A stretch of 64,000 nt of DNA from an uncultured Planctomycetales bacterium (lineage in GTDB: Bacteria; Omnitrophota; Gorgyraeia; Zapsychrales; JAHFFX01): the NCBI GenBank assembly GCA_964612665.1, contig CAZTCI010000008.1, forward strand, positions 1,083-65,082. The letters are read 5' to 3'. Below the pieces are notes generated by a model. The model was not told where the DNA came from and searched no databases. It saw only the letters and a program-made list of their open reading frames with translations. Both the position numbers and the translations under genes were made by a program. Every line of letters begins with the position of its first letter. The stretch's first letter is position 1. This document shows, one piece after another, positions 1-59,358 of the stretch.

Positions 1-3000
1 ATCACGATTTTAGATAACGGGAATATCGGAATCGGATCGACGCTGCCGCAGCAGGCGTTGGATTTAGGCACAAACAAGATTATTGCGGATGGATCGTTAT
101 TAACAAGTTTGCCTACAGGCGGTTGGACGGACGGTGGGACGAATGTGAATGTGACAACGAACACGGATAACGTGGCGATCGGGACAACAAGTTTTGCGTC
201 GAATGCCAAATTAACAGTGCAAGGGAACGGGACATCGACAAATATCATGGCACAGTTCCAAGCGTCAGGCGGGACGGCGAAGATAACGATTTTGGATAAT
301 GGCAATGTAGGGATCGGCTCGACGGTGCCAACGTCGTTGTTGGATGTGACGAATGGCGTTGTCAAGATCTGGACAGGAGCAGGAACAGATAACAATGCGA
401 CATCCGCCGGGGAATTATACGTCGAAGGAGATTTAGAAGTGGATGGATCGATTTATGGAAACGGAGCGAATATTACAGGTATCAGTGCGGGCGGTTGGAC
501 AGACGGTGGGACGAATGTAAGTTTGACGACGAACGGAGATAATGTCGCGATAGGGACGACAAGTTTTGCGTCGAGTGCGAAGTTGACGGTGGCGGGGAAT
601 GGATCTTCGACGAACATCATGGCGCAGTTCCAGGCGTCGGGTGGAACGGCGAAGGTGACAATTTTAGATAACGGGAATGTGGGAATAGGGACGACGAATT
701 TAGGAGGAATGTTCACGATTCAAGGGGCAGGAACGACGACGGGACTTAACTTTCAGACGAAGAATTCTTCAGCGACAGCGTTGGTAACGATGCAGGACAG
801 CGGTAATGTAGGGTTAGGGTCATCGGTTCCGACGGGAAAATTGATTGTGCAGGGCGCAGGGTCTTCAACGGGAATCACGTTGCAGACGCAGAATTCCTCA
901 GCGACGGCGTTAATGACGGCGCTTGATAACGGAAACGTCGGTATTGGTTCCACGGTACCGGCGCAGCTGTTGGACATTGGAGGATCTGCGGGAAACATGA
1001 CATTCAGCCACGCGACAGGGCCGCACAAAATTACCACAGGAGGAACATCGGACTTGGCATTATTACCGGGAGGCAATGTTGGGATCAATACAACCAGTGT
1101 GGGAGGAAAATTAATTATTCAGGGAACAGGAACATCGACGGCGATCAACTTTCAGACAAAAGATTCAAGCGCGACAGCGCTGGTGACGGGATTAGATAAT
1201 GGCAATGTTGGAATAGGCTCGACGGTACCGGCAGCAAAATTGGATGTCAACGGCAGTATCCAATCTTCAGGATCGTCGGATTCTTATTTTAATAGCAGCG
1301 GCGGAAACGTAGGGATCGGTTCAACTGTACCGGCACAGAAGTTGGATGTGAATGGAACGGTACAGATGACCGGGTTTAAATTAACAACGTCCCCGACGAA
1401 CGCATACGTGTTGACTTCCGACAGCAATGGTGTCGGGACTTGGGCCTCTGCCGTCTCGGCGAATGGTTGGACGGACGGCGGAACAAATATAACCGTGACA
1501 GCCAACGGCGATAATGTGGCGATGGGAACAACATTATTTGCGTCGAATGCGAAGTTGACGGTAATGGGTAACGGTTCATCGACGAATATCATGGCGCAGT
1601 TTCAGGCGAATGGCGGGACGGCAAAAGTGACAATTCTCGATAACGGCAATATTGGGATCGGCTCAACCCTACCTCAGCAGGTGTTGGATTTGGGGGCGGG
1701 AAAAATTATCGGGGACGGTTCGTTGTTAACAAGTCTTCCAAATCAAGGCTGGTCCGACGGCGGGACAAATGTGTTCCTGGCGACGAACGGCGATAACGTG
1801 GCGATTGGAACGACAAGCTTTGCATCGAATGCGAAACTGACCGTGCAGGGCAACGGAACTTCAACCAACATCATGTCGCAGTTCCGCGATTCTTCGGCGA
1901 GCGCCAAGATGACAATACTTGATAATGGTAATGTCGGGATTGGAAGTACCAATCCAGGAAATCTCCTCGATATTTCAACAACATCCAATATATCTGAGCT
2001 TGGAATTTCTCAGCTTGACGGAGGATCTGGAAGCCAGCCGATCGTTATATTCTTAGGAGACGATACAACCGATACAGCGTTTCAGATCAGTTTAAGTGCT
2101 GACACTGTTAAACGCTATAGTATCCTGACTACCGGCGAAATGTCATGGGGGACAGGGAGCGCGACGAGAGATACCCGATTGTACCGTTCCGCGGCAAACA
2201 CTTTCATCATGGATGATAATGCCGCAGGCGCAGAGACTTTGACGGTAACAGGTTCTGCTAATTTCGCCACCGTCTCGGGAAATGTGGGGATCGGCACAAC
2301 TAATTTGACGGGACGATTGACAGTTCAAGGGACAGGAACAACTACGACGCCTAATTTTCAGACGAAAAATTCTAGTGCGACAGCTTTAGTTACGATGCAG
2401 GACAGCGGGAATGTTGGGATCAGTTCATCGGCGCCTCAAGGGAAATTGATAGTCCAAGGCGCGGGAACGTCGACGGGGATTACATTGCAGACGCAGAATT
2501 CTTCAGCGACGGCGCTGGTAACAGGGTTAGATAATGGGAACGTTGGCATCGGCTCGACGGTGCCGGCACAGGCCTTGGATGTGAATGGCGAAATCCGTGT
2601 CGTGACGCTTGCGGCCGCCGCGGCGACGACAGTTTGCCGGGACGCCAGCAATAATCTTTCAACTTGTTCTTCATCGAGGGAATTCAAAGATAATATCGCG
2701 TATCTGAGCGACGAACAAACGGCCGATATTTTAAACCAGATTAGAAATTCAAAGATGGCTTCATTTTATTTTAAGACTGATCATCCGGAGATGAAACGTT
2801 ATGGGATCATTGCGGAAGAAGCGCCGGAACCGCTGAGGTATATCGATGAGCATGGCCATCAGAACTTGGATTTCTACTCGGCCCAGCTGGGTTATAGCTG
2901 GGCGGGAATTCAAGCTTTAATCCATCGGGTAGAGGCGCTTGAATCGATTATTTATTTAAATCATAAAAGAAATTCAACTATTTATGACAACGGGGATTCG

Positions 3001-3285
3001 GGACCGGCATTGACGATCAACTGGAATAATAGCAGGAATCAGAAAGTCAGACTGACGGACAATTGTACATTGACTTTCGCGGCTCCCGACGGCACTGACC
3101 GGCTGCTTTTGCAACTAGTGCAGGATTCAACTGGCTCGCGAACAGTGAGTTGGCCAGATACGGTCAAATGGCCTGGCGGCAATATTCCTAGATTGGCGGC
3201 GACTTCCACGACGGGCATAAACATTATCAGCTGTTTTTACAATGGAATTGATTATTTGTGTACAGATTCCTTGGATTTAAAATGA
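1..3285 (+). CDS. Giant secreted fibre-like repeat protein, 5'-truncated by the window edge (paralog 1). C-terminal intramolecular-chaperone (peptidase S74-like) domain.
   Basis: The reading frame is open from nt 1 (ITILDNGNIGIGSTLPQQALD matches internal repeats of paralog 2). It contains ~75-aa Gly/Asn/Thr-rich repeats (GDNVAIGTTSFASNAKLTV.GNGSSTNIM, DNGNVGIGSTVP..LD). The C-terminus (SSSREFKDNIAYLSDEQTADILNQI..KRYGIIAEEAPEPLRY..) matches the S-x-R-x-x-K..NI / GvIAqEv pattern of endosialidase and T5 L-shaped tail-fibre C-terminal chaperone domains. The stop codon overlaps the paralog 2 start (ATGA). Confidence 0.75.
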   Translation: MTILDNGNIGIGSTLPQQALDLGTNKIIADGSLLTSLPTGGWTDGGTNVNVTTNTDNVAIGTTSFASNAKLTVQGNGTSTNIMAQFQASGGTAKITILDNGNVGIGSTVPTSLLDVTNGVVKIWTGAGTDNNATSAGELYVEGDLEVDGSIYGNGANITGISAGGWTDGGTNVSLTTNGDNVAIGTTSFASSAKLTVAGNGSSTNIMAQFQASGGTAKVTILDNGNVGIGTTNLGGMFTIQGAGTTTGLNFQTKNSSATALVTMQDSGNVGLGSSVPTGKLIVQGAGSSTGITLQTQNSSATALMTALDNGNVGIGSTVPAQLLDIGGSAGNMTFSHATGPHKITTGGTSDLALLPGGNVGINTTSVGGKLIIQGTGTSTAINFQTKDSSATALVTGLDNGNVGIGSTVPAAKLDVNGSIQSSGSSDSYFNSSGGNVGIGSTVPAQKLDVNGTVQMTGFKLTTSPTNAYVLTSDSNGVGTWASAVSANGWTDGGTNITVTANGDNVAMGTTLFASNAKLTVMGNGSSTNIMAQFQANGGTAKVTILDNGNIGIGSTLPQQVLDLGAGKIIGDGSLLTSLPNQGWSDGGTNVFLATNGDNVAIGTTSFASNAKLTVQGNGTSTNIMSQFRDSSASAKMTILDNGNVGIGSTNPGNLLDISTTSNISELGISQLDGGSGSQPIVIFLGDDTTDTAFQISLSADTVKRYSILTTGEMSWGTGSATRDTRLYRSAANTFIMDDNAAGAETLTVTGSANFATVSGNVGIGTTNLTGRLTVQGTGTTTTPNFQTKNSSATALVTMQDSGNVGISSSAPQGKLIVQGAGTSTGITLQTQNSSATALVTGLDNGNVGIGSTVPAQALDVNGEIRVVTLAAAAATTVCRDASNNLSTCSSSREFKDNIAYLSDEQTADILNQIRNSKMASFYFKTDHPEMKRYGIIAEEAPEPLRYIDEHGHQNLDFYSAQLGYSWAGIQALIHRVEALESIIYLNHKRNSTIYDNGDSGPALTINWNNSRNQKVRLTDNCTLTFAAPDGTDRLLLQLVQDSTGSRTVSWPDTVKWPGGNIPRLAATSTTGINIISCFYNGIDYLCTDSLDLK

Positions 3286-6200
3286 TAACGCATTTGAATC
3301 TTAAAAATTTGCACCGTTCGCCAAGACTGAATAAATTTGTTCAGCTGTGGGAATTACTGACTTTTGCATTGCAAAAGTCTAGTACTAGGCCGTTTCTCCC
3401 TAAAAATGATAGAACAACCTTATCTTTGGGAGAGAAAAGGCCAGTAAGGTGGTTTTTTGCAATCGCGATTCTCATCGGATTATTGATGACACCGCGGCTA
3501 GGTTTTGCTGTTTCAGACACGGGATCTGAATCAATTCCTATCGGAACTAATGCCGGGAATAAATTGAATGTTGGTTCAGGAAAGTTTATCCTCGACGGGA
3601 ATACAAGCAACGTTGGAATTGGTTCAACAGTTCCAGCGGCGAAACTGGATGTGAATGGTTCCGTTAAAATTTGGACAGGCGCCGGCACAGATTCGAATGC
3701 CACCTCCGCCGGGGAATTGTATGTGGAAGGAGATTTAGAGGTGGATGGGTCGATTTATGGAAATGGGGCGAATATCAGCATTAGTAGTGGCGGCTGGACA
3801 GACGGCGGGACGAATGTGAATCTGGTAACGAACGGAGATAACGTTGCGATTGGGACAACGGCGTTTGCATCAAACGCAAAATTAACGGTCGCGGGCAACG
3901 GTTCATCGACGGGAATCAATACACAATTTCAAACGAATGCCGGTGCCGCGAAGATCACGATTCTGGATAATGGAAATGTAGGGCTAGGCTCAACGCTGCC
4001 GCAGCAGGTGTTGGACTTGGGATCAGGAAAAATTATTGGTGATGGTTCACTGTTGACAAGCCTGCCGAATCAGGGCTGGACGGACGGCGGGACGAATGTT
4101 TATGCGACGACGAATGGGGATAACGTGGCGATAGGAACGACAGGATTTGCGAGTAATGGAAAATTAACCATTGCGGGTAATGGATCATCGACGGGAATCA
4201 ATACGCAATGGCAGACAAATGTAGGAACACCGATTGTAACAATCTTGGACAATGGAAATATTGGGATAGGATCGACGCTGCCCCAGCAGGCGTTGGATTT
4301 GGGATCAGGAAAAATTATTGGCGATGCGGAATTTTTAACTAATGTGACCTTCGATGGATGGACTGATGGTGGAACAAATGTGTATATGAACTTTATTACA
4401 AACAATGTGGGTATTGGGACGAGTGTTCTTCCAAGTGCAAAGTTGACAATCGCAGGAAATGGATCATCAACGGGGATCAATACGCAGTTTCAGGCGAAGG
4501 GCGCGACAGCGAAGATCACGATTTTGGATAATGGGAATATAGGACTTGGTTCAACGCTGCCGGCGGTATTGTTAGATGTGACGAGTGGTGTTGTGAAGAT
4601 TTGGACAGGAACAGGGACGGACAACAATGCGACGTCAGCTGGCGAACTTTACGTCCAAGGAGATTTGGAAGTTGATGGATCCATATATGGAAATGGGGCG
4701 AACATCAGCAACGTTGACGGCGCAGGGTGGGCGGACGGCGGGACAAATGTTTATATGACGGCCAATGGAGATAACATAGCAATAGGGACAACGTCATTTG
4801 CGTCGAATGCAAAATTAACCGTGCAAGGGAATGGAACATCGACGAACATCATGACACAGTTTCGGGATTCCTCGGCGAATGCGAAGATCACGATTTTGGA
4901 TAATGGGAATGTGGGGATCGGATCAACGCTGCCGGGAACGTTGTTCGATGTAACAAATGGAGTTGTTAAAATTTGGACCGGGGCAGGGACGGATAATAAC
5001 GCGACATCGGCGGGTGAATTGTATGTTGAAGGAGATTTGGAAGTGGATGGATCGATTTATGGAAACGGAGCGAACATTACAAATATCAGTGCCGGCGGTT
5101 GGACAGACGGTGGGACAAATGTGAATTTGTCAACGAATGGAGACAATGTGGCGATCGGAACAACGTTATTTGCGTCGAATGCGAAGTTGACGGTGGCGGG
5201 TAACGGATCATCGACGAATATTATGGCGCAGTTCCAGGCGTCGGGTGGAACGGCGAAGGTGACAATTTTAGATAACGGGAATGTGGGAATAGGGACGACG
5301 AATTTAGGAGGAATGTTCACGATTCAGGGAGCTGGAACAACAACTGGACTTAACTTTCAGACGAAGAATTCTTCGGCAACGGCGTTGGTGACGGCGCAGG
5401 ATAGCGGTAATGTGGGAATAGGGTCATCGGTTCCGACGGGAAAATTGATTGTGCAGGGCGCAGGGTCTTCGACGGGAATCACGTTGCAGACGCAGAATTC
5501 CTCAGCGACGGCGTTAATGACGGCGCTTGATAACGGAAACGTCGGTATTGGTTCCACGGTACCGGCGCAGTTATTAGACATTGGAGGATCAGCAGGGAAC
5601 ATGACGTTCAGCCACGCGACGGGACCGCACAAAATTATCACGGCAGGAACAACGGACTTGGCGTTATCACCGGGAGGGAACGTTGGGATTAATACGACAA
5701 ATGTGACGGGAAAATTAACAATCCAAGGGACAGGAACAACGACGGCGATTAACTTCCAGACAAAAGATTCAAGCGCGACAGCGCTGGTGACGGGATTAGA
5801 TAATGGCAATGTTGGAATAGGTTCGACGGTACCGGCATTTAAATTAGATATAAATGGAGGGATCCAAGCGACCGGTTCATCAGATTCCTATTTAAACAGC
5901 AGCAGTGGAAACGTCGGGATCGGTTCAACGGTTCCGGCCCAGAAGTTGGATGTTAATGGAACAGTGCAGATGACGGGATTTAAATTAACGACATCACCGA
6001 CGAATGGATATGTGTTAGTTTCGGATTCTAACGGTGTTGGAAGTTGGTCAGTCCCCAGTGCTGGCGGCGGCTGGACGGATGGCGGGACAAATGTTTATGT
6101 GACGGCGAACGGCGACAATGTGGCGATAGGGACGACATCGTTTTCAAGTGGGAAACTGACGATTGCCGGCAATGGATCTTCGACGGCAATTAATACGCAA

Positions 6201-9200
6201 TGGCAAACGAATGCAGGCTCAGCGAAGATCACGATTTTAGACAACGGGAATATCGGAATCGGATCGACGCTGCCGCAGCAGGCGTTAGACATGGGGACAA
6301 ATAAGATCATTGCCGACGGATCATTGTTGACGAATCTGAGTGCGGGCGGTTGGATAGACGGCGGGACGAATGTTTATGTGTCAACGAATGGCGATAACGT
6401 GGCGATTGGAACAACATTATTTGCGTCGAACGCGAAATTGACGGTCGCTGGAAATGGATCTTCAACGAATATTATGGCGCAATTTAGAGATTCCTCAGCG
6501 AATGCGAAGATCACGATTTTGGATAACGGGAATGTAGGGATCGGCTCGACGCTGCCTGGAACATTGTTGGATGTGACAAGCGGCGTTGTGAAGATTTGGA
6601 CAGGAGCAGGGACAGATAATAACGCGACATCAGCCGGAGAATTATATGTCGAAGGAGATTTGGAAGTTGATGGGTCGATTTATGGAAATGGGGCGAACAT
6701 TACAAATATCAGTGCCGGCGGATGGACAGACGGCGGAACGAATGTGAACCTGGCGACGAATGGAGATAATGTGGCGATAGGAACGACGTTATTTGCGTCG
6801 AGTGCGAAGTTAACGGTGGCGGGTAACGGATCATCGACGAATATTATGGCGCAGTTCCAGGCGTCGGGTGGGACGGCGAAGGTGACAATTTTAGATAATG
6901 GTAATGTGGGAATAGGGACGACGAATTTGGGAGGAATGTTCACGATTCAAGGGGCAGGAACGACAACAGGGTTGAATTTGCAAACGCGCAATTCCTCGGG
7001 AACCAACTTAATAACGGCGCAAGACAGCGGTAATGTGGGGATCGGATCATCGGTTCCGCAAGGAAAGTTAATTGTGCAGGGAGCAGGGACGACAACGGGG
7101 ATCACGTTGCAGACACAGGATTCATCAGCGGCGGCGTTAGTGACAGGGTTAGATAATGGGAACGTTGGGATAGGCTCGACGGTACCGGCGCAGTTGTTAG
7201 ACATTGGAGGATCAGCAGGGAACATGACGTTCAGCCACGCGACGGGACCGCACAAAATTATCACGGCAGGAACAACGGACTTGGCGTTATCACCGGGAGG
7301 GAACGTTGGGATTAATACGACAAATGTGACGGGAAAATTAACAATCCAAGGGACAGGGACAACGACGGCGATTAACTTCCAGACAAAAGATTCAACCGCC
7401 ACAGCGCTGGTGACGGGATTAGACAATGGGAACGTTGGAATAGGCTCGACGGTGCCTGCCGCAAAATTGGATGTCAACGGCACAATCCAATCGTCGGGCT
7501 CATCAGATTCCTATTTAAACAGTACCGGCGGAAATCTAGGGATCGGTTCAACAACGCCATCACAGAAGTTGGATGTGAATGGAACCGTCCAGATGACCGG
7601 ATTTAAATTGACAACGTCACCAACAAATACATACGTGCTAACTTCCGACAGCAATGGCGTTGGAACTTGGGCAGCGCCGGGTGGAGGAGGATGGTCGGAC
7701 GGCGGAACAAATATATTTGAAATAACCAATAGTGACAATATGGGGATTGGGACATCAATATTAGCTTCTAATGCCAAGTTGACCATCGCTGGTAATGGAA
7801 GCAGCACAAACATCATGACGCAGTTTCGTGATTCTTCAGCGAGTGCCAAGGTGACGTTTTTGGATAACGGCAATATTGGAATTGGGTCAACATTACCGCA
7901 GCAGGTTCTGGATTTGGGATCAGGAAAGATTATTGGTGACGGATCCTTGTTAACTGGCCTCAGTCTCGCTGCCAACGGCTGGACGGACGGCGGGACGAAT
8001 GTGTATGTGACAACGAATGGCGATAACCTGGGTATCGGAACGACCAGCTTTGCAACGAATGCGAAATTGACCGTGCAGGGCAACGGGACTTCAACCAACA
8101 TTATGTCGCAGTTTCGTGATTCTTCGGCGAACGCCAAGGTGACCATTCTTGATAACGGTAACGTAGGGATCGGGAGTTCAAATCCCGGAAGTTTGCTGGA
8201 TATTTCAACAACGGCCAACAATATTGTTTTTCAAGTTTCTCAGCTTGATGGTGGGGCGTCAAGCCAGCCTGCTGTTGTATTGTTAGGAGATGATACAACC
8301 GATACTGCGTTCCAAATAAGTTTAAGTGCAGATACTGTTAAACGTTTTAGTATGCTCACTACCGGTGAAATGTCGTGGGGTTCAGGGAGTGCGACGAGAG
8401 ATACCCGATTGTATCGTTCCGCGACGAGTACGTTCACACTTGATGACAACGCTGGCGGCGCAGGGAACTTGACGGTAACAGGGCCAACAAATTTGGCGAC
8501 CGTTTCTGGAAATGCTGGAATCGGCACAACAAGTTTAAGCGCACGGCTGACCATTCAAGGGACCGGAACCACGACCGCGCCTAATTTTCAGACGAAAAAT
8601 TCTAGCGCGACAGCTTTAGTTACGATGCAGGATAGCGGGAATGTTGGGATTAGCTCATCTGCGCCTCAAGGAAAATTAATTGTGCAGGGCGCAGGAAGTA
8701 CGACGGGGATTACATTGCAGACGCAGAATTCTTCAGGAACAGCATTAGTCACCGCTTTAGACAATGGGAACGTTGGCATCGGCTCGACGGTGCCGGCGCA
8801 GGTCTTGGATGTGAATGGCGAAATCCGCGTCGTGACGCTCGCGGCCGCAGCGGCTACAACTGTTTGCCGTGATGCGAGCAATAATCTTTCGACCTGTTCT
8901 TCATCGCGGGAATTCAAAGACGATATTCAATATCTCGATGAAAAACAAACCACAGATATTTTAGATCAGATTAAAAATTCAAAGATGGCTTCATTTTATT
9001 TTAAGACGGACCATCCTCAGATGAAACGTTACGGGATCATTGCAGAAGAAGCGCCGCAAGCGCTGCGCTATATTGATGAACATGGTCATCCGAATTTAGA
9101 TTTCTACTCGGCTCAGCTAGGTTATACCTGGGAGGGGATTCAAGCTTTGACCCGCTGGATAGAGACACTTGAATCTACTGTTTATTCTAAACAGAAATCG

Positions 9201-9509
9201 AGGCCAGCTATTTATGACAACGGGGATTCGGGATCGGCATTGACGATTAACTGGAAGAATAGAAGGAATCAAAAAGTCAAACTGACGGACAATTGTGCAT
9301 TGACTTTCGCGGCTCCCGACGGGGCTGACAGGCTGCTTTTGCAACTGGTCCAGGACTCGACCGGTTCACGGACAGTGAGTTGGCCACAGACGGTCAAATG
9401 GCCTGGCGGTAATATCCCTAGATTAGCGACGCCGCCAACGACGGGAACAGACATTATCAGCTGTTTTTATGATGGAATTGATTACTTGTGTAGAAATTCT
9501 GGATTTTAG
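3282..9509 (+). CDS. Giant secreted fibre-like repeat protein (paralog 2, ~2075 aa) with C-terminal S74-like intramolecular-chaperone domain.
   Basis: A 6.2-kb ORF. The first ATG (3282) overlaps the paralog 1 stop as ATGA. A signal-peptide-like stretch (FFAIAILIGLLMTPRLGFAVS) is homologous to the paralog 3 N-terminus. The ~570-aa unit is internally duplicated. The C-terminal ~230 aa are nearly identical to paralogs 1 and 3 (SSSREFKDDIQYL..GIIAEEAPQALRY). The exact start is uncertain because a 95-bp repeat element sits at the 5' end. Confidence 0.75.
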   Translation: MITHLNLKNLHRSPRLNKFVQLWELLTFALQKSSTRPFLPKNDRTTLSLGEKRPVRWFFAIAILIGLLMTPRLGFAVSDTGSESIPIGTNAGNKLNVGSGKFILDGNTSNVGIGSTVPAAKLDVNGSVKIWTGAGTDSNATSAGELYVEGDLEVDGSIYGNGANISISSGGWTDGGTNVNLVTNGDNVAIGTTAFASNAKLTVAGNGSSTGINTQFQTNAGAAKITILDNGNVGLGSTLPQQVLDLGSGKIIGDGSLLTSLPNQGWTDGGTNVYATTNGDNVAIGTTGFASNGKLTIAGNGSSTGINTQWQTNVGTPIVTILDNGNIGIGSTLPQQALDLGSGKIIGDAEFLTNVTFDGWTDGGTNVYMNFITNNVGIGTSVLPSAKLTIAGNGSSTGINTQFQAKGATAKITILDNGNIGLGSTLPAVLLDVTSGVVKIWTGTGTDNNATSAGELYVQGDLEVDGSIYGNGANISNVDGAGWADGGTNVYMTANGDNIAIGTTSFASNAKLTVQGNGTSTNIMTQFRDSSANAKITILDNGNVGIGSTLPGTLFDVTNGVVKIWTGAGTDNNATSAGELYVEGDLEVDGSIYGNGANITNISAGGWTDGGTNVNLSTNGDNVAIGTTLFASNAKLTVAGNGSSTNIMAQFQASGGTAKVTILDNGNVGIGTTNLGGMFTIQGAGTTTGLNFQTKNSSATALVTAQDSGNVGIGSSVPTGKLIVQGAGSSTGITLQTQNSSATALMTALDNGNVGIGSTVPAQLLDIGGSAGNMTFSHATGPHKIITAGTTDLALSPGGNVGINTTNVTGKLTIQGTGTTTAINFQTKDSSATALVTGLDNGNVGIGSTVPAFKLDINGGIQATGSSDSYLNSSSGNVGIGSTVPAQKLDVNGTVQMTGFKLTTSPTNGYVLVSDSNGVGSWSVPSAGGGWTDGGTNVYVTANGDNVAIGTTSFSSGKLTIAGNGSSTAINTQWQTNAGSAKITILDNGNIGIGSTLPQQALDMGTNKIIADGSLLTNLSAGGWIDGGTNVYVSTNGDNVAIGTTLFASNAKLTVAGNGSSTNIMAQFRDSSANAKITILDNGNVGIGSTLPGTLLDVTSGVVKIWTGAGTDNNATSAGELYVEGDLEVDGSIYGNGANITNISAGGWTDGGTNVNLATNGDNVAIGTTLFASSAKLTVAGNGSSTNIMAQFQASGGTAKVTILDNGNVGIGTTNLGGMFTIQGAGTTTGLNLQTRNSSGTNLITAQDSGNVGIGSSVPQGKLIVQGAGTTTGITLQTQDSSAAALVTGLDNGNVGIGSTVPAQLLDIGGSAGNMTFSHATGPHKIITAGTTDLALSPGGNVGINTTNVTGKLTIQGTGTTTAINFQTKDSTATALVTGLDNGNVGIGSTVPAAKLDVNGTIQSSGSSDSYLNSTGGNLGIGSTTPSQKLDVNGTVQMTGFKLTTSPTNTYVLTSDSNGVGTWAAPGGGGWSDGGTNIFEITNSDNMGIGTSILASNAKLTIAGNGSSTNIMTQFRDSSASAKVTFLDNGNIGIGSTLPQQVLDLGSGKIIGDGSLLTGLSLAANGWTDGGTNVYVTTNGDNLGIGTTSFATNAKLTVQGNGTSTNIMSQFRDSSANAKVTILDNGNVGIGSSNPGSLLDISTTANNIVFQVSQLDGGASSQPAVVLLGDDTTDTAFQISLSADTVKRFSMLTTGEMSWGSGSATRDTRLYRSATSTFTLDDNAGGAGNLTVTGPTNLATVSGNAGIGTTSLSARLTIQGTGTTTAPNFQTKNSSATALVTMQDSGNVGISSSAPQGKLIVQGAGSTTGITLQTQNSSGTALVTALDNGNVGIGSTVPAQVLDVNGEIRVVTLAAAAATTVCRDASNNLSTCSSSREFKDDIQYLDEKQTTDILDQIKNSKMASFYFKTDHPQMKRYGIIAEEAPQALRYIDEHGHPNLDFYSAQLGYTWEGIQALTRWIETLESTVYSKQKSRPAIYDNGDSGSALTINWKNRRNQKVKLTDNCALTFAAPDGADRLLLQLVQDSTGSRTVSWPQTVKWPGGNIPRLATPPTTGTDIISCFYDGIDYLCRNSGF
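3357..3447 (+). repeat. ~95-bp structured intergenic repeat element, copy 1 (two hairpins: ttttgcattgcaaaa and ggccgtttctccc...gggagagaaaaggcc).
   Basis: Near-identical copies are found at 58697-58788 (+) and 44549-44648 (reverse complement). It contains an internal palindrome and a 13-bp stem flanking a conserved loop (aatgatagaacaaccttatctt). Confidence 0.7.
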
Positions 9510-9611
9510 ATGAAATCAAAAATTTGATCAAAATGATTGTTGCTGACAACAGTGACACGATGGAAAAAGATAATCCGACGGTGTTCGGTCAAACGGACGA
9601 TAAATTGATAT

Positions 9612-12600
9612 ATGACGTTAATGTTTATTTATACTTGCAAGTTTTTTAAGCAAATGAGAATTCATTTATTAAAGAATTGGTTAATGCTATGCCTCATCGG
9701 CCTGTTGATGACGCCGCGGCTGGTTTTAGCCATTTCCGACGGGACGGGATCTGAGACCATTCCTATTGGAACAGGTTCCGGGAATAAATTGGATGTCGGT
9801 TCGGGAAAGTTCATTGTCAACGGCAATACCACTAATGTGGGGATCGGCTCAACGGTGCCGGCGGCGAAACTGGACGTGAATGGTCCCGTTAAAATTTGGA
9901 CAGGCGCCGGCACAGATTCGAATGCCACCTCCGCCGGGGAATTGTATGTGGAAGGAGATTTAGAGGTGGATGGGTCGATTTATGGAAATGGGGCGAATAT
10001 CAGCAGCATTAATATTGGAGGTTGGACGGACGGCGGGACGAATGTGAATCTGGTAACGAACGGTGATAACGTTGCGATTGGGACAACGGCGTTTGCATCG
10101 AACGCAAAATTAACGGTCGCGGGCAACGGTTCATCGACGAACATTATGGCGCAGTTCCAGGCATCGGGCGGCTCAGCGAAAGCGACGATTTTAGACAATG
10201 GAAATGTTGGGTTAGGTTCGACGCTGCCTCAGCAGGTGTTGGACTTGGGATCAGGAAAAATTATTGGTGATGGTTCACTGTTGACAAGCCTGCCGAATCA
10301 GGGCTGGACGGACGGCGGGACGAATGTTTATGCGACGACGAATGGGGATAACGTGGCGATAGGAACGACAGGATTTGCGAGTAATGGAAAATTAACCATT
10401 GCGGGTAATGGATCATCGACGGGAATCAATACGCAATGGCAGACGAATGCAGGCTTGGCGAAGATAACAATTTTAGATAATGGAAATATTGGAATCGGCT
10501 CGACGTTGCCTCAGCAGGCGTTGGATTTGGGAGCAGCTGGAGGCATTGTTGGTGATGGGTCATTGGTATATAACACTACTGGATCAGGTTGGACGCATGG
10601 TAGGACAATTCTGTATCTGGAGACGAATAGCGATAATGTGTCGATCGGGTCAACGAATTCGTCCTTGTCGCCTGGGAAGCTGACGATAGCAGGAAATGGA
10701 TCATCAACCGGAATCAATACGCAGTTTCGGGACGTCTCAGGAACAGCGACAATCACAATTTTGGATAATGGAAATATAGGACTTGGTTCGACGCTGCCAG
10801 CGTCATTATTGGATGTGACGAATGGAGTTGTGAAGGTCTGGACAGGAGGAGGAACGGACAATAACGCGACATCAGCGGGTGAATTGTATGTCGAAGGTGA
10901 TTTGGAAGTGGATGGATCGATTTATGGGGATGGGGCGAATATTTCAGGAATAGCTGGTGCTAACGGCTGGACCGATGGCGGAACGAATGTTTATCTGACG
11001 GCGAATGGAGATAACATAGCCATCGGGACGACAGGTTTTGCCTCGAATGCGAAATTGACGGTCAAGGCCAATGGAAGTTCAACCAACATCAGTACGCAGT
11101 TCCGGGATTCATCGGCGAACGCGAAGGTGACGATTTTGGATAATGGAAATATAGGACTTGGTTCGACGCTGCCAGCGTCATTATTGGATGTGACGAATGG
11201 AGTTGTGAAGGTCTGGACAGGAGGAGGAACGGACAATAACGCGACATCAGCGGGTGAATTGTATGTCGAAGGTGATTTGGAAGTGGATGGATCGATTTAT
11301 GGGGATGGGGTGAATATTACAGGAATCGCTGCTGGTGCGAACGGCTGGACGGACGGTGGGACTAATGTGAATCTGGCAACGAACGGCGATAACGTTGCGA
11401 TTGGGACAACGGCGTTTGCGTCGAATGCGAAGTTGACGGTGGCGGGTAATGGATCATCAACGAACATGATGACACAGTTTCAAACGTCAGGTGGGACGGC
11501 GAAGATGACGATTTTAGATAACGGGAATGTTGGGATTGGGACGACGAATTTGGGAGGCATGTTCTCGATTCAAGGAGCGGGAACAACGACGGGACTTAAT
11601 TTTCAAACAAAAAATTCCTCAGCAACGGCGCTGGTGACGATGCAGGATAGCGGGAATGTGGGGCTCGGGTCATCAGTTCCAACGGGAAAGTTGATCGTCC
11701 AAGGGGCGGGAACGACAACGGGGATCACATTGCAGACACAAAATTCATCAGCGACGGCTCTCGTGACGGCGCTTGATAACGGAAACGTCGGGATCGGTTC
11801 AACTGTGCCGACGCAGTTATTGGACATTGGAGGATCAGCAGGGAATATAACGTTCAGCCATGCGACGGGGCCGCATCAGATTGCAACGGGTGGTTCAAGT
11901 GATTTGTCGTTATCACCTGGAGGCAACGTTGGGATCAATACAACCAGTGTAGGAGGAAAATTAGTTATTCAAGGAGCAGGAACGACGACGGGAATTAATT
12001 TCCAGACAAAAGATTCAAGCGCCACGGCGCTGGTGACGGGATTAGATAACGGGAATGTCGGGATCGGCTCAACCGTTCCGGCGTACAAGTTAGATGTTAA
12101 TGGTGGAATTCAAGCGACGGGAGCCGGAGATTCTTATTTGGCGAGTAGTGGAAACAATGTGGGCATTGGCTCAACCGTTCCGGCGCAGAAATTGGATGTG
12201 AATGGAACCGTGCAGATGACCGGCTTTAAATTAACGACTTCCCCGACAAATGGATATGTATTGACATCGGATGCCAACGGTGTGGGGACATGGTCAGCAT
12301 CCGTAAGTGCCGCCGGAGGCTGGACGGATGGTGGAACGAATGTTTATGTGACGACCAACGGCGACAATGTGGCGATTGGGACAACGTTATTTTCCAGTGG
12401 GAAACTAACCATTGCAGGTAATGGTTCTACGACGGGAATTAATACACAATTCCGGACGAACGCCGGAACAGCGAAGATAACTATTCTTGATAATGGAAAT
12501 ATCGGGATTGGTTCGACCCTCCCTCAGCAGGTGCTGGATATCGGATCAAATAAGATCATCGCAGACGGATCCTTAATGACGAGTGTGCCTGGCTCAGGCT

Positions 12601-15600
12601 GGACCGACGGCGGAACGAATGTTTATATGACGACGAATGGAGACAACGTAGCCATCGGGACGACAAGTTTTGCCTCGAATGCGAAATTAACGGTCAAATC
12701 CAATGGAAGCTCAACCAACATCAGCACACAATTCCGTGATTCCTCGGCGAATGCGAAGGTCACAATTTTGGATAATGGAAATATAGGCATCGGTTCAACA
12801 TTACCGCAGATCAAGTTAGATGTGAATGGCGGAGCGGCGCGGGTTTGGACGGGAGCCGGAACGAATACGAACGCCACGTCTGCTGGAGAGTTGTATGTTG
12901 AAGGTGATGTCGAAGTGGACGGTTCAATTTATGGAGATGGTTCGAATGTCGTGACCAGTAGTGGCGGCTGGACCGACAACGGAACAAATATGAATTTGAC
13001 GGCGAACGGGGACAATGTCGCGATTGGAACAACGTTATTTGCGTCAAATGCGAAATTAACTGTCGCCGGCAATGGAAGCAGTACAAATATTATGACACAA
13101 TTTCAGGCATCTGGCGGGACGGCGAAGGTGACGATTTTGGATAATGGAAACGTCGGGATTGGGACAACAAGTTTGGGAGGGATGTTTACAATTCAAGGGG
13201 GAGGAACCACGACGGGCATCAACTTTCAGACGCAAGATTCAACAGCAACCGCATTGGTAACAGGACAAGACAGTGGCAATGTGGGAATTGGGTCATCGGT
13301 ACCGACGGGAAAATTGATTGTTCAGGGGGCTGGAACAACGACGGGAATTACCTTGCGCACACAAAATTCCTCAGCCACGGCGCTAGTCACGGCACTTGAC
13401 AAAGGCAATGTCGGAATTGGCTCGACGGTGCCTGCGGAGTTATTGGACATTGGAGGTTCAGCGGGCAACATGACGTTTAGCCATTCAACGGGTCCTCATA
13501 AGATCATAACCGGAAGTTCAAGTGATCTTTCATTATCGCCAGGGGGAAATGTCGGCATTAATACAACCAATGTGACGGGCAAGTTGACTATTCAAGGCGC
13601 TGGCACGACGACTGGTATTAATTTCCAAACAAAAGATTCAAGCGCTACAGCGTTAGTGACAGGATTGGATAATGGTAATGTTGGGATTGGTTCAACCGTG
13701 CCCGCGGTCAAATTGGATGTTAACGGAACCATCCAATCAACAGGATCAGGAGATTCTTATTTGAATGTAAGCAGCGGCAATGTTGGTATCGGTTCGACGG
13801 TGCCCGCGGCTAAACTGGATGTTAATGGAACTATCCAAATGACGGGATTTAAGTTAATCGGGTCAGTGGGTGGATACGTGCTGACCTCGGATGCCAATGG
13901 TGTGGGGACATGGACCGCGCCGTCAGCGGCAGCGGGGGGTTGGACCGACGGCGGGACAAATACAAATATGTATCTCACGGCGAATGGTGATAACGTGGCG
14001 ATAGGGACAGCCACATTTGCCACCAATGCAAAGCTGACGGTCAAGGGCAATGGTTCTTCGACAAATATTATGGCGCAGTTTCAGTCTTCTGGCGGGACGG
14101 CGCAGGTAACAATTTTGGATAATGGAAACGTCGGGTTAGGTTCAACATTGCCGCAACAGGCGCTGGATTTAAGTTCAGGAAAAATCAAAGGGGACGGTTC
14201 TTTGTTAACAAGCCTGAATCCCGCCGGCTGGACCGATGGCGGAACGAATGTGAAGCTGACGACGAATGGCGATAATGTGGCCATCGGTACAACCAGCTTT
14301 ACGTCGAACGCAAAATTGACCGTGCAGGGCAACGGCGCTTCAACCAATATCATGGCGAGGTTTCGCGATTCATCGGCAACCATCAGAGTGACGATTCTCG
14401 ACAACGGCAACGTGGGGATCGGAAGCTCGGCGCCAACAAGTCCTCTTGAAATGACGTCAACAGCAAATCAAACGATGCTTACCGTCCGTCAACTTGATAC
14501 AGGCGCCAACAGTGTTCCTATAATGACCACTTTGGGAGACGATGTGAGCGATCGGGCGTTTCAACTCGGGATAAGTTCAGATTCGATTAAACGGTTAAGT
14601 ATTTTAACCACTGGTGAAGCGGCATGGGGAGCGGGGGGTGGATCAACTCGGGATACGCGATTGTATCGTTCAGCGACCAATACTTTAACAATGGATGATA
14701 ATGCCGGCGGCGCAGGAACATTGAAGGCGACAGGAACAACTAATTTGGGGACGGTTTCAGGGAATGTGGGCGTTGGTACAACTAATTTGACGGGACGATT
14801 GACAATCCAAGGGACAGGCACAACCACAGCGCCTAATTTTCAGACGAAAAATTCAAGCGCAACAGCACTGGTGACGATGCAGGACAGCGCAAACGTTGGG
14901 CTTGGGACGTCTGTCCCAGGAGGAAAATTGATTGTGAAAGGCGCCGGGACAACGACGGGGATTACATTGCAGACGCAAAATTCATCGGCAACGGCGCTGA
15001 TTACAGCATTAGATAACGGCAACGTAGGCATCGGCTCGACGGTGCCAGCGCAGGTATTAGATGTCAACGGCGAGATCCGTGTCGCGACGCTCGCCGCCGC
15101 GGCGGCTACAACGGTCTGCCGGGATGCGAGCAATAATCTTTCGACCTGTTCTTCGTCGAGGGAATTTAAAGATGATATTGAATATCTCAGCGCTGAACAA
15201 ACCGCAGATATTCTAAACCAAATTAAGAATTCAAAGATGGCTTCATTTTATTTTAAGACTGATCATCCGGAGATGAAACGTTATGGGATCATTGCGGAAG
15301 AAGCGCCGCAACCGCTGCGTTATATTGATGAGCATGGCCATCAGAATTTGGATTTCTATTCCGCCCAGCTGGGTTATCCGTGGGTGGGGATCCAGGCGTT
15401 GATTCGGCGGATGGAGACAATCGAATCAACGACTTCTTCTGATGGTCGACGCAGCTTAGGCATTTATGATAACGGTAATTCGGGAGCTTTGCTAACGATC
15501 GACTGGAACAAGAGTGATAATCAGAAAGTCCTGTTAACGGACAATTGCACATTGAACTTCTTACCGCCCGACGGCGTTGACAAGCTTTTTTTGAAGTTGG

Positions 15601-15773
15601 TTCAAGATATGATTGGTTCGCGTCAAGTCATCTGGCCAGAAACAGTCAAGTGGCTCGACAACAACGGCCAACCGCCGGTGTTAACGATAACACCAGCAAC
15701 CGGCACTGATTTGATTAGTTGTTTTTACGACGGAAGTGACTATCTGTGTACCTCTTCACTGGATTTTAAATAA
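9612..15773 (+). CDS. Giant secreted fibre-like repeat protein (paralog 3, ~2050 aa) with C-terminal S74-like intramolecular-chaperone domain.
   Basis: A 6.1-kb ORF. The N-terminal signal peptide is (MRIHLLKN)WLMLCLIGLLMTPRLVLAIS. The start is either 9612 or 9654. It carries the same repeat classes as paralogs 1 and 2. The C-terminus is SSSREFKDDIEYLSAEQTADILNQI..KRYGIIAEEAPQPLRY. Confidence 0.8.
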   Translation: MTLMFIYTCKFFKQMRIHLLKNWLMLCLIGLLMTPRLVLAISDGTGSETIPIGTGSGNKLDVGSGKFIVNGNTTNVGIGSTVPAAKLDVNGPVKIWTGAGTDSNATSAGELYVEGDLEVDGSIYGNGANISSINIGGWTDGGTNVNLVTNGDNVAIGTTAFASNAKLTVAGNGSSTNIMAQFQASGGSAKATILDNGNVGLGSTLPQQVLDLGSGKIIGDGSLLTSLPNQGWTDGGTNVYATTNGDNVAIGTTGFASNGKLTIAGNGSSTGINTQWQTNAGLAKITILDNGNIGIGSTLPQQALDLGAAGGIVGDGSLVYNTTGSGWTHGRTILYLETNSDNVSIGSTNSSLSPGKLTIAGNGSSTGINTQFRDVSGTATITILDNGNIGLGSTLPASLLDVTNGVVKVWTGGGTDNNATSAGELYVEGDLEVDGSIYGDGANISGIAGANGWTDGGTNVYLTANGDNIAIGTTGFASNAKLTVKANGSSTNISTQFRDSSANAKVTILDNGNIGLGSTLPASLLDVTNGVVKVWTGGGTDNNATSAGELYVEGDLEVDGSIYGDGVNITGIAAGANGWTDGGTNVNLATNGDNVAIGTTAFASNAKLTVAGNGSSTNMMTQFQTSGGTAKMTILDNGNVGIGTTNLGGMFSIQGAGTTTGLNFQTKNSSATALVTMQDSGNVGLGSSVPTGKLIVQGAGTTTGITLQTQNSSATALVTALDNGNVGIGSTVPTQLLDIGGSAGNITFSHATGPHQIATGGSSDLSLSPGGNVGINTTSVGGKLVIQGAGTTTGINFQTKDSSATALVTGLDNGNVGIGSTVPAYKLDVNGGIQATGAGDSYLASSGNNVGIGSTVPAQKLDVNGTVQMTGFKLTTSPTNGYVLTSDANGVGTWSASVSAAGGWTDGGTNVYVTTNGDNVAIGTTLFSSGKLTIAGNGSTTGINTQFRTNAGTAKITILDNGNIGIGSTLPQQVLDIGSNKIIADGSLMTSVPGSGWTDGGTNVYMTTNGDNVAIGTTSFASNAKLTVKSNGSSTNISTQFRDSSANAKVTILDNGNIGIGSTLPQIKLDVNGGAARVWTGAGTNTNATSAGELYVEGDVEVDGSIYGDGSNVVTSSGGWTDNGTNMNLTANGDNVAIGTTLFASNAKLTVAGNGSSTNIMTQFQASGGTAKVTILDNGNVGIGTTSLGGMFTIQGGGTTTGINFQTQDSTATALVTGQDSGNVGIGSSVPTGKLIVQGAGTTTGITLRTQNSSATALVTALDKGNVGIGSTVPAELLDIGGSAGNMTFSHSTGPHKIITGSSSDLSLSPGGNVGINTTNVTGKLTIQGAGTTTGINFQTKDSSATALVTGLDNGNVGIGSTVPAVKLDVNGTIQSTGSGDSYLNVSSGNVGIGSTVPAAKLDVNGTIQMTGFKLIGSVGGYVLTSDANGVGTWTAPSAAAGGWTDGGTNTNMYLTANGDNVAIGTATFATNAKLTVKGNGSSTNIMAQFQSSGGTAQVTILDNGNVGLGSTLPQQALDLSSGKIKGDGSLLTSLNPAGWTDGGTNVKLTTNGDNVAIGTTSFTSNAKLTVQGNGASTNIMARFRDSSATIRVTILDNGNVGIGSSAPTSPLEMTSTANQTMLTVRQLDTGANSVPIMTTLGDDVSDRAFQLGISSDSIKRLSILTTGEAAWGAGGGSTRDTRLYRSATNTLTMDDNAGGAGTLKATGTTNLGTVSGNVGVGTTNLTGRLTIQGTGTTTAPNFQTKNSSATALVTMQDSANVGLGTSVPGGKLIVKGAGTTTGITLQTQNSSATALITALDNGNVGIGSTVPAQVLDVNGEIRVATLAAAAATTVCRDASNNLSTCSSSREFKDDIEYLSAEQTADILNQIKNSKMASFYFKTDHPEMKRYGIIAEEAPQPLRYIDEHGHQNLDFYSAQLGYPWVGIQALIRRMETIESTTSSDGRRSLGIYDNGNSGALLTIDWNKSDNQKVLLTDNCTLNFLPPDGVDKLFLKLVQDMIGSRQVIWPETVKWLDNNGQPPVLTITPATGTDLISCFYDGSDYLCTSSLDFK

Positions 15774-15787
15774 CTTAAAACCTCCAC

Positions 15788-15825
15788 CAACCGCGGGGAA
15801 TGAACAGGTTCATTCCCCGCGGTTG
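15788..15825. repeat. REP-like perfect palindrome (caaccgcggggaatgaac-ag-gttcattccccgcggttg). It overlaps the 3' end of the RAYT gene and probably acts as a bidirectional terminator.
   Basis: An 18-bp perfect inverted repeat, extended by acctccacc. Related copies are at 16651-16729 and 59359-59400. Confidence 0.8.
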
Positions 15826-16448: not shown

Positions 16449-16650
16449 TAGAACCTCCTCTGTGTCGGGAGAGAAGCCCATCCCAAAACGCAGAAAATGA
16501 ATAAGTTCATTCCAGCGCGAGCGCGGGGGTTGGTAGAGTTTTTAATTATAATTTTGGGGAGTTTTAAAAGGAAATCTGGGAAGGTATTTTAATGGGCATA
16601 TTATAAATTTTTATTATTCTTCGTCAAGAATCATTTCAACCAATCATTTT

Positions 16651-51937: not shown

Positions 51938-51952
51938 ATTCAACAAGAGGAG

Positions 51953-52324: not shown

Positions 52325-52327
52325 CAA

Positions 52328-59343: not shown

Positions 59344-59358
59344 TGACTTTGACCAAAT

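Follow-up and report, generated by a model that had tools for sequence, protein, structure and literature searches.

A 94-nucleotide repeat is present in three copies within the window, the whole 64-kb stretch of DNA analyzed here, and is probably a non-autonomous MITE-type mobile repeat of uncultured Candidatus Omnitrophota. A MITE was one of the options raised in an earlier note on this DNA. That option is supported by the discrete unit, the terminal inverted repeat, the TA ends, the unrelated flanks, the insertion at copy 2, and the breaks in independent assemblies. The element looks like a new family of a known type of repeat and not a regulatory RNA gene.

Copies and Boundaries of the Element

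Copy 1 is located at positions 3354 to 3447 of the forward strand and is 94 nucleotides in length. Copy 2 (44552 to 44645, reverse strand) is inverted with respect to the forward-strand genes that flank it. Copy 3 (58694 to 58789, forward strand) is 96 nucleotides in length owing to two 1-nucleotide insertions. Searches with nhmmer --max and blastn-short identified exactly three copies in the 64-kb stretch and no further degenerate copies. Pairwise identity among the three is 89.6 to 93.6%. The earlier note had counted three copies at about 90% identity, and both statements hold, with its coordinates off by a few bases.

The edges of the copies are sharp and the DNA flanking them is unrelated. 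Matches to either half of the element were expected 0.00 times in shuffled sequence. The copies are present in both orientations, and all three are intergenic or at a gene boundary, in a window that is gene-dense. The element, 94 to 96 bp in size, has no transposase gene and falls within the size range of bacterial MITEs, non-autonomous derivatives of DDE transposons that measure roughly 50 to 500 bp. The only internal ORFs are a 13-amino-acid mini-ORF and an open 31-codon frame, both without homologs. The mini-ORF (MIEQPYLWERKGQ) was considered as a gene and dropped, having neither an SD sequence nor homologs.

Ends of the Element

The element ends in a terminal inverted repeat, with TTACTG on the left (3354 to 3359 in copy 1, forward strand) and CAGTAA on the right (3442 to 3447, forward strand). 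This repeat is a perfect 6 bp in copies 1 and 2, while the right end of copy 3 reads CAGCAA. Without gaps, 11 of the 16 terminal positions match in copy 1, and 9 to 11 of 16 match over all copies. The terminal inverted repeat coincides with the limits of homology between the copies.

The ends can be read as T-TA-CTG...CAG-TA-A. The CTG...CAG sequence is flanked by TA...TA in copies 1 and 2, and by TA...CA in copy 3. At the left boundary, two copies have the tetranucleotide TTAC and the third has CTAC. The termini are also written TTACTGRCYTTT. Because the T-TA...TA-A pattern is conserved in all copies, it could belong to the element itself and not represent a TA target-site duplication. Protein identity to the nearest homolog is 71%.

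The shortness of the terminal inverted repeat was counted against the MITE-type reading. Its 6 bp are comparable in length to the inverted repeats of RUP, the repeat unit of pneumococcus (9 bp), ERIC (7 bp), and RU-3 (4 bp) (Table 1, PMC2229807). TTACTG/CAGTAA was also considered as a closing RNA helix and rejected, as both changes found there in copy 3 break pairs.

Locations of the Copies

Copy 2 lies 4 nucleotides after the stop codon (44545 to 44547) of a gene for a 611-amino-acid membrane protein and 6 nucleotides before the ATG (44652) of a family-2 glycosyltransferase gene. The intergenic spacer that holds it is 104 nucleotides long (94 + 10); the earlier note was correct that copy 2 fills this spacer, although it gave the length as 100 bp. 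The orthologs of these two genes lie side by side in two related Omnitrophota, separated by 12 nucleotides in one and overlapping as ATGA in the other. The ortholog of the membrane protein, about 600 amino acids in length, is 44% identical in the two relatives (E = 1e-179 and 2e-172), and the orthologous glycosyltransferase is 69% identical. Because the junction is 12 nucleotides or overlapping in the relatives and 104 nucleotides here, copy 2 is, by sequence comparison, an insertion relative to the orthologous loci. Three independent short-read Logan assemblies break inside this copy. A metagenome check for an empty-site allele found no record of the 611-amino-acid protein.

Copy 3 starts 56 nucleotides after the stop codon of a DUF488 gene and ends 119 nucleotides before the ATG (58909) of a gene for an Ada-Zn-domain protein. 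This ATG has a strong SD of its own (AAGGAG). The copy is carried in the apical loop of a 126-nucleotide palindrome (58634 to 58855) with arms at 58634 to 58691 and 58798 to 58855. The arms are 58 nucleotides long and 79% complementary, and the palindrome without the element folds at −65.2 kcal/mol. An empty-site allele of copy 3 was sought in the same metagenomes. The adjoining Logan contig (L020) ends at 58674, which is 20 nucleotides short of copy 3 and inside the left arm of the palindrome. Two start variants of the gene downstream of copy 3 were not on record.

Copy 1 begins 68 nucleotides after the stop codon (3283 to 3285) of fibre paralog 1 and runs right up to the codons that encode the hydrophobic core of the paralog 2 signal peptide. 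An in-frame TTG (3426 to 3428, forward strand), a candidate start of paralog 2, is located inside the 3’ arm of hairpin 2. A start at this codon would yield MGEKRPVRWFFAIAILIGLLMTPRLGFA, a canonical-looking signal peptide with its charged N-region taken from the element. Copy 1 may in this way supply both the TTG start and the charged signal-peptide N-terminus of paralog 2. The alternative candidate is the ATG at 3282, which overlaps the stop codon of paralog 1 as ATGA and would give a 76-amino-acid leader reading through the element. A search with the N-terminal 173 amino acids of paralog 2 for its annotated start did not return the protein itself; it returned only repeat-region fragments of 57 to 67% identity.

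Fibre paralog 3 has a native-type start and signal peptide (9654 to 9731, forward strand; MRIHLLKNWLMLCLIGLLMTPRLVLA) and serves as the comparison for the segment displaced by copy 1. An 85-nucleotide segment of paralog 3 corresponds to 15 + 94 + 23 nucleotides in paralog 2. Paralog 3 was rejected as an empty site for copy 1, as the segment is replaced and not cleanly interrupted. The earlier suggestion that paralog 2 lost its native start to copy 1 is reasonable, although the comparison with paralog 3 points to a replacement of sequence and not to a clean insertion. The related statement that places two copies directly at the 5’ ends of signal-peptide genes is true of copy 1, which abuts its gene, but not of copy 3, given its distance from the ATG.

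Hairpin Structures

The element contains two hairpin structures. Hairpin 1 of copy 1 (3356 to 3383, forward strand) is composed of a core palindrome, GACTTTTGCA-T-TGCAAAAGTC (3359 to 3379), with an ACU/AGU extension across a bulged U. Hairpin 2 of copy 1 (3384 to 3445, forward strand) is composed of the stem GGCCgUUUCUCCCUAAA / UUUGGGaGAGAAAaGGCC, an inner 5-bp helix, and a 7-nucleotide apical loop. Both the palindrome and the stem noted earlier, GGCC(T/G)TTTCTCCC / GGGAGAGAAAAGGCC, are present. The predicted RNA folds of the copies range from −36.7 kcal/mol (copy 1, z = −6.2) to −40.2 kcal/mol (copy 3, z = −7.4). The element strand folds 2 to 5 kcal/mol better than its complement by means of G-U pairs, a modeled difference that is weakly suggestive of a strand-specific (RNA or ssDNA) constraint.

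In helix 1, 11 of 12 pairs are invariant and one is broken in copy 2. Helices 2 and 3 show three one-sided changes, four pair-breaking cells, and no double changes. For the whole structure over the three copies, this amounts to 0 double, 3 one-sided, and 5 pair-breaking changes, a count that rests on three near-identical sequences and has almost no power (the shuffle control is likewise uninformative). There are 13 variable columns among the three copies, of which 8 fall in the 74 paired columns and 5 in the 22 unpaired columns (Fisher p = 0.17). The compensatory stem changes that the earlier note proposed to look for are absent among these three near-identical copies. The same note had held that a total of three copies, together with a lack of compensatory changes, would reduce the element to a short dispersed repeat, and this combination is what was found within the window searched.

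The covariance-model search proposed earlier gave no family match. Rfam 15 returned 0 matches over the whole window at gathering thresholds, and at E ≤ 5 returned only spurious matches to miRNA-type hairpins, with 13 to 19 bits against thresholds of 84 to 279. No sigma-70-like promoter overlaps or adjoins any copy, with the reservation that Omnitrophota promoters may differ from the scanned consensus, and no intrinsic terminator was found in or beside any copy. The element itself was rejected as an intrinsic terminator (no T-run) and as an integron attC site (no GTTRRRY core, and no integrase among the scanned ORFs).

Open Reading Frame

The same peptide had been described within a long ORF in all three copies. 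Copy 1 does lie in an ORF of 2083 amino acids and copy 3 in one of 228 amino acids. The description does not fit copy 2, whose frame occurs only in a 71-amino-acid ORF antisense to a real gene. The open frame of copy 3 is a mosaic of three copy 1 frames because of its two 1-nucleotide insertions. The open frame of copy 1 matches the phase of paralog 2, at the 5’ edge of that gene. The frame of copy 3 also matches its downstream gene but precedes the SD-ATG start, and copy 2 is out of phase.

One forward frame is open in 29% of shuffles of copy 1, and the shared peptide follows trivially because the copies are about 90% identical in DNA. The two co-oriented copies both have an open frame that keeps the phase of the gene downstream, which is estimated to be a mild coincidence (about 1%). 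Four reading frames of the element, concatenated and compared with 5.8 billion proteins in search of more copies, gave no match.

Database Searches and Candidate Transposases

Two conserved cores of the element were used as queries. Among 185,579 GTDB species genomes, the first core had 0 matches and the second had 10 chance matches to the pattern itself only. One core had two matches among JGI metagenome contigs, both by chance, and the two cores had 0 matches in IMG/VR. The element had no blastn match among plasmids and phages.

No DDE transposase was found among the scanned ORFs of the window, and neither a cognate transposase nor a full-length IS with the ends of the element was seen in the window. 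A RAYT-like Y1 transposase ORF is located at 15810 to 16481 on the reverse strand. It matches Pfam Y1_Tnp (3.3e-7) and NCBIfam REP_Tyr_transpos with 56.7 bits, which is under the 80-bit cut-off of the latter model. This ORF is flanked by its own REP-like palindromes (CAACCGCGGGG...CCCCGCGGTTG) and not by the 94-nucleotide element. The 5’ ends of the 94-nucleotide element on its two strands read TTACTG and TTACTGG, and there is no GT(A/G)G head.

Alternative Explanations

It is unlikely that the element moved as single-stranded DNA by means of a Y1 (HUH) transposase, either as an IS200/IS605-derived palindrome-associated element or as a unit resembling REP/BIME and moved by a RAYT. In that case one hairpin would be the structure recognized at the left end and the other that at the right end, and TTAC would be the left target or cleavage site. 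Elements derived from IS200/IS605 are characterized by a hairpin near each end and a fixed tetranucleotide 5’ of the left one. Each end of the element does bear one hairpin, and TTAC, the target of IS608, forms the left boundary of two copies (CTAC in the third). The loop of the long palindrome in which copy 3 lies is a natural single-stranded target; a RAYT-like Y1 transposase is encoded in the window, and the genome is rich in other palindromic repeats. Against this, hairpin 1 begins only 2 nucleotides from the boundary, where the hairpin offset of IS608 is about 19 nucleotides. The palindrome flanking the RAYT-like gene is a different one, and the GT(A/G)G head is absent. Members of the IS200/IS605 family have no terminal inverted repeats (PMC2817692), unlike this element with its perfect 6-bp repeat. 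The strong folds, and the greater stability of the element strand, would also suit a functional structured RNA, either a 5’ leader controlling the translation or stability of downstream genes for secreted proteins, in which hairpin 2 of copy 1 would mask the TTG start, or a multi-copy small RNA. Three one-sided changes retain pairs as G-U or C-G, and two of the three copies are co-oriented and upstream of genes with N-terminal hydrophobic signal sequences. We consider such an RNA quite unlikely. Stable hairpins are expected of any inverted-repeat element. Among the three near-identical copies, no change is compensatory, five cells break pairs, and substitutions are not depleted in the stems. 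There is no Rfam match, promoter, or terminator. Copy 2 is antisense at an operon junction, close to both neighboring genes, and the element is absent from the orthologous junction of the relatives and from all collections searched. The cis-regulatory RNA and small RNA family put forward in the earlier note consequently find no support in the Rfam search, the covariation, the promoter and terminator scans, or the antisense position of copy 2.

Two further readings are very unlikely. In the first, the element is translated, and its peptide (RPFLP(K/E)NDRTTLSLGEKRP), inserted in frame or extending the N-terminus, is under protein-level selection, as are the Rickettsia palindromic elements. Every copy has one open frame, which in copies 1 and 3 keeps the phase of the gene that follows, and the ATG at 3282 would read through copy 1. 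Differences in the shared frame number 4 synonymous and 3 to 4 non-synonymous by hand count, which is not significant. The frame of copy 3, however, stays open only through two frame shifts, and the gene beyond it has its own AAGGAG-ATG start 119 nucleotides downstream. The ORF over copy 2 is antisense and spurious, no frame of the element occurs in the 5.8-billion-sequence protein database, and shuffled copies have an open frame in the proportion given above. The other reading, which we hold to be just as improbable, is of a mobile 5’ module that goes beyond selfish DNA and reprograms genes for secreted proteins, donating on insertion a start codon and a charged signal-peptide N-region with the start embedded in a stable hairpin, or else of a two-hairpin class that is transposed as a single strand and targets palindrome loops. 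Were the 5’ module real, the translation of giant surface fibres would be controlled through structure, with dependence on temperature or a helicase, for example.

Proposed Origin and Relation to Known Elements

As a MITE-type repeat, the element was probably spread by a transposase encoded elsewhere and would have landed in AT-rich, TTAA-like sites in intergenic DNA. Once inserted, it would be passively co-transcribed with its neighbors. The two stable hairpins would be a by-product of the inverted-repeat architecture and may incidentally affect mRNA stability or translation. The open frame would likewise be incidental, as in other bacterial MITEs, and would let copies survive at the 5’ ends of genes. 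In fibre paralog 2, the native start region appears to have been displaced by copy 1, which probably now gives this gene its start codon and the positively charged N-region of its signal peptide. Counted against a MITE-type origin, besides the short inverted repeat and the ambiguous TA, are the small number of copies (three), the absence from the window of a transposase or IS with matching ends, the better folding of the element strand, the in-phase frames of the two co-oriented copies, and the replaced segment at copy 1.

Bacterial MITEs are about 100 to 200 bp long, form stable stem-loops, and often have TA at their termini (PMC2229807). Judged by these analogs, no new mechanism is involved, as stable hairpins, TA ends, an open frame, and fusion to a signal peptide are all precedented in bacterial MITEs. 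Among the closest known systems are RUP (107 bp), which is thought to be mobilized by IS630-Spn1, and the Correia/NEMIS elements of Neisseria (107/155 bp). The element shares with them a size of about 100 bp, short terminal inverted repeats, TA termini, mostly intergenic dispersal, stable stem-loops, and co-transcription with neighboring genes, the last of which is proposed for the Omnitrophota element (PMC2229807). Fusion of open frames to host ORFs is also known for the 107-bp Correia species (PMC2229807). In sequence, the present element resembles neither system, and its host is an uncultured Omnitrophota. The Omnitrophota element has two separate hairpins instead of one long end-to-end stem, its inverted repeat is perfect over just 6 bp (11/16), and both an IS630-type partner and a TA duplication are putative.

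Two independent stem-loops are found in the CIR family (PMC2229807), the CcrM-associated intergenic repeat of Caulobacter and Brucella, which has independent 5’ and 3’ stem-loops and TA termini like the present element (Table 1, PMC2229807). CIR is listed as having neither a terminal inverted repeat nor an open frame, and it carries a methyltransferase-site motif (PMC2229807). The Omnitrophota element has both features, the inverted repeat being short, and a motif of that kind was not identified in it. The REP/BIME/REPIN sequences associated with RAYT are also short palindromic intergenic repeats, and the window has a RAYT-like gene with REP-like palindromes of its own. These sequences are single palindromes of 20 to 40 nucleotides with a GT(A/G)G head (PMC2817692), whereas the element is a 94-nucleotide, two-hairpin unit with a terminal inverted repeat.

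The frames of MITEs can fuse in frame to host genes, and the signal peptide of YPO1552 is partly formed by a MITE (PMC2229807). This Yersinia YPAL/RU-2 case parallels copy 1 and fibre paralog 2. In the Rickettsia palindromic elements (RPE), the frame of the repeat is also fused in frame to host ORFs. RPEs lie inside conserved protein genes and their translation is demonstrated, whereas here a single copy reaches a coding region, at the very 5’ end, and any translation of it is putative. The element would add to the cases in which a small repeat has been recruited to form the 5’ end of a gene for a secreted protein.

Few descriptions exist of the mobile DNA of the uncultured Omnitrophota, which makes a cataloged repeat family useful in practice. 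Since the element breaks short-read contigs, knowing it aids assembly and binning. It also aids the annotation of gene starts, because ORF callers can run through the element.

Copies and Structure of the Element

The two-hairpin element is real: a small dispersed repeat of this Omnitrophota genome that had not been catalogued before. It has three copies in the window: copy 1 at 3354-3447(+), copy 2 at 44552-44645(-), and copy 3 at 58694-58789(+), aligned over 94-96 nt. Copies 1 and 2 are 93.6% identical, and copy 3 is 89.6% identical to either. Dinucleotide shuffles of the window give 0.00 expected matches to either half of the element, and the three-copy repeat of about 90% identity described in the earlier note is confirmed. 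No degenerate or partial further copies were found in the window by a profile search at maximum sensitivity and short-word blastn, leaving the total at exactly three. Homology between copies ends sharply on both sides and the flanks are unrelated among the three, so the copies are independent placements of a discrete unit. Segmental duplication as their source is ruled out by the same abrupt ends and unrelated flanks. The surrounding sequence is an ordinary chromosomal region containing recG, an rsmD-like gene, coaD, yceD, rpmF, plsX, fabH, fabD, glycosyltransferases, and three tandem giant fibre paralogs.

The element consensus is TTACTG-ACTTTTGCA(T)TGCAAAAGT-CTAGTACTA-GGCCTTTTCTCCC-[27 nt]-GGGAGAGAAAAGGCC-AGTAA. 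RNA folding gives two hairpins in every copy: a palindrome near the left end (hairpin 1) and a longer right-hand stem-loop (hairpin 2). The element strand folds at -36.7 to -40.2 kcal/mol (z = -6.2 to -7.4) and the complement at -34.5 to -35.6 kcal/mol (z = -4.8 to -5.6). The termini form a perfect 6-bp inverted repeat, TTACTG...CAGTAA, with an ungapped match at 11 of 16 terminal positions. They can also be parsed as T-TA-CTG...CAG-TA-A, which places TA at each end; the termini of copy 3 are TA...CA. The G+C content is 38-41%, compared with 45.6% for the window.

Distribution

Across 185,579 species, each represented by a single genome, the first invariant core of the element had 0 matches and the second had 10, which were pattern-only. 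One core gave only two chance matches in JGI metagenome contigs, two cores gave 0 in IMG/VR, and blastn against plasmids and phages gave none. The element is also absent from the related loci retrieved for comparison. Because none of these sets gave a true match, the family appears to be lineage-restricted.

Insertion at an Operon Junction and in a Palindrome

Copy 2 begins 4 nt past the stop codon of a 611-aa membrane-protein gene and ends 6 nt ahead of a glycosyltransferase ATG, inverted with respect to both. In two related Omnitrophota the orthologous genes (membrane proteins 44% identical, E = 1e-179 and 2e-172; glycosyltransferases 69% identical) abut directly, with a 12-nt spacer containing an SD in one and an ATGA overlap in the other. 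The spacer in the window is 104 nt, equal to the 94-nt element plus 10 nt. This difference is the clearest evidence that the element was inserted. In all three Logan short-read assemblies (SRR12313477-79), a contig begins within hairpin 1 of copy 2, as a de Bruijn assembler behaves at sequence repeated over more than k bases. The adjoining glycosyltransferase is present as an exact sequence in NCBI and in these three assemblies; its named homologs are all from Candidatus Omnitrophota/Omnitrophica MAGs, the closest only 71% identical.

Copy 3 runs from 56 nt past a DUF488 gene to 119 nt ahead of the ATG of an Ada-Zn-domain protein gene that has its own AAGGAG SD. It occupies the apical loop of a 126-nt palindrome (58634-58693 plus 58790-58855) with 58-nt arms, which begins directly behind the DUF488 stop codon and folds at -65.2 kcal/mol without the element. 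A Logan contig found in three samples (L020) ends at 58674, within the left arm, which suggests that this host palindrome is itself repeated or polymorphic; the window contains no second copy of it.

The 5' End of Fibre Paralog 2

The three tandem giant fibre-like paralogs at 58-15773 are 1075 aa (partial), about 2030-2080 aa, and 2040 aa in length, and are composed of many repeats of ~93-124 aa (GGWTDGGTNV...NGDNVAIGTT). Paralogs 1 and 2 have homologous 3' ends and downstream spacers, and near the C-terminus of paralog 2 there is a weak match to Peptidase_S74 (endosialidase chaperone).

Copy 1 starts 68 nt past the stop codon of paralog 1 and leads directly into the WFFAIAILIGLLMTPRLGFA codons, which specify the hydrophobic core of the paralog 2 signal peptide; paralog 3 has MRIHLLKNWLMLCLIGLLMTPRLVLA at the matching position. 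DNA homology between paralogs 2 and 3 is present upstream (around ...GTTCG..ATAAATT...) and picks up again at CTCATCGG. The intervening 85 nt of paralog 3, start codon included, have 15 + 94 + 23 nt as their counterpart in paralog 2. The native start region of paralog 2 is gone, as the earlier note had proposed, but by replacement of a segment rather than a clean insertion.

Two candidate in-frame starts are left. ATG 3282 overlaps the paralog 1 stop (TGA 3283-3285) as ATGA and would give a 76-aa leader reading through the element. The codons that follow it (MITHLNLKN) resemble the paralog 3 start MRIHLLKN, either by chance or as a remnant of the native start that was moved upstream. TTG 3426 lies in the 3' arm of hairpin 2 and would give MGEKRPVRWFFAIAILIGLLMTPRLGFA; this looks like a canonical signal peptide, with a K/R-rich N-region encoded by the element. 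Neither start has an SD, which is uninformative in this genome since a recognisable SD lies within 3-13 nt at no more than about a third of the ~26 gene starts examined in the window. The choice between the two is one of inference. Copy 1 may have been co-opted as the 5' end of paralog 2.

RNA and Coding Potential

The cis-regulatory or small RNA suggested earlier found no support. Rfam gave no match at gathering thresholds and, at E<=5, only spurious miRNA-like hairpin matches far under threshold. Compensatory change on both sides was found in 0 of 37 pairs, in an alignment of three near-identical copies with little statistical power; one-sided change occurred in three pairs (to G-U or C-G), and five cells break a pair. 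Of the 13 variable columns, 8 are among the 74 paired positions and 5 among the 22 unpaired ones (p = 0.17), so the stems show no sign of protection. None of the three copies is overlapped by a promoter-like or terminator-like site, and copy 2 is antisense to its operon with no room for signals of its own. That the element strand folds slightly better is the sole hint of strand-specific constraint. The evidence is against a functional RNA, as absence of support rather than disproof given the low power of the alignment.

Each copy has one open forward frame, as do 29% of composition-matched shuffles. Because of two 1-nt insertions, the open frame of copy 3 is a mosaic of the three copy 1 frames, and that of copy 2 lies within an ORF of 71 aa on the strand opposite a real gene. 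No frame of the element occurs in any of 5.8 billion proteins. In both co-oriented copies the frame is open and keeps phase with the gene downstream, a coincidence estimated at ~1%, which is noted but not compelling. Many bacterial MITEs have contiguous open frames that have been seen fused in frame to host ORFs, and the signal peptide of YPO1552 is formed in part by a MITE (PMC2229807); an open frame at a signal-peptide gene is therefore a documented MITE trait.

Probable Mode of Transposition

The element is probably a MITE-type non-autonomous element, the option favoured among those first raised for it. This reading rests on architecture, dispersal, and insertion; two defining features of MITEs, a target-site duplication and a cognate transposase, are putative here. 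A terminal inverted repeat, TA ends, dispersed copies in both orientations, intergenic placement, insertion relative to orthologous loci, and collapse in assemblies are all in place. The element works like the bacterial MITEs of the RUP, Correia, ERIC, CIR, and YPAL type. CIR, with two independent stem-loops and TA termini, has the nearest architecture, and YPAL and RPE are nearest for the in-frame/signal-peptide aspect (PMC2229807); none of them is related to the element in sequence. Mobilisation would be in trans, through a transposase whose gene lies elsewhere. An IS630-type enzyme, as proposed for RUP (PMC2229807), would suit TA within a TTAA-like site and is a lead only. Once inserted, the element would be passively co-transcribed, and its hairpins may have incidental effects on the mRNA.

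The main rival, single-strand transposition by a Y1 enzyme, is unlikely. A hairpin at either end of the element, the left boundary TTAC, the insertion in a palindrome loop, and a RAYT-like gene within the window would all fit such an enzyme. However, the terminal inverted repeat of the element is a feature missing from the IS200/IS605 family (PMC2817692), and the palindrome flanking the RAYT-like gene differs from the element.

Other Repeats in the Window

The RAYT-like ORF (15810-16481(-), 223 aa) has an IS200-like Y1 transposase domain and matches Pfam Y1_Tnp (3.3e-7) and the NCBIfam REP-associated tyrosine transposase (56.7 bits, under the 80-bit cut-off). Within 15780-16726, REP-like palindromes flank this ORF: CAACCGCGGGGAATGAACAGGTTCATTCCCCGCGGTTG at 15788-15826, and a doublet at 16648-16726. 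Such a pairing of RAYT and REP is the classical one, and it occurs here in an Omnitrophota genome. A solo copy of the palindrome lies at 59358-59402 (region 59352-59402), right behind the Ada-like gene.

An almost perfect G+C-rich hairpin of 143 nt (57650-57792), with a folding energy of -82.4 kcal/mol (z = -8.4), lies inside an intergenic region of 635 nt. It has an AT-rich closing stem of 14 nt (ATCTCATAAATGGC/GCTATTTATGAGAT) and no Rfam match. Logan contigs break either side of its centre (L003 ends near 57677 and L020 starts at 57766), so the hairpin sequence is present more than once or varies within the metagenome. It could represent a further REPIN- or MITE-like family.

A gene at 51962-52324 encodes a four-helix-bundle member of the 23S rRNA intervening-sequence protein family and is enclosed by inverted repeats of 35 nt (51898-51932 and 52329-52363, 94% complementary). 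The resulting ~466-bp unit (51898-52363) exactly fills the fabH-fabD spacer and looks like a small mobile cassette. A solo arm of its inverted repeat is found at 47839-47872, just past recG.
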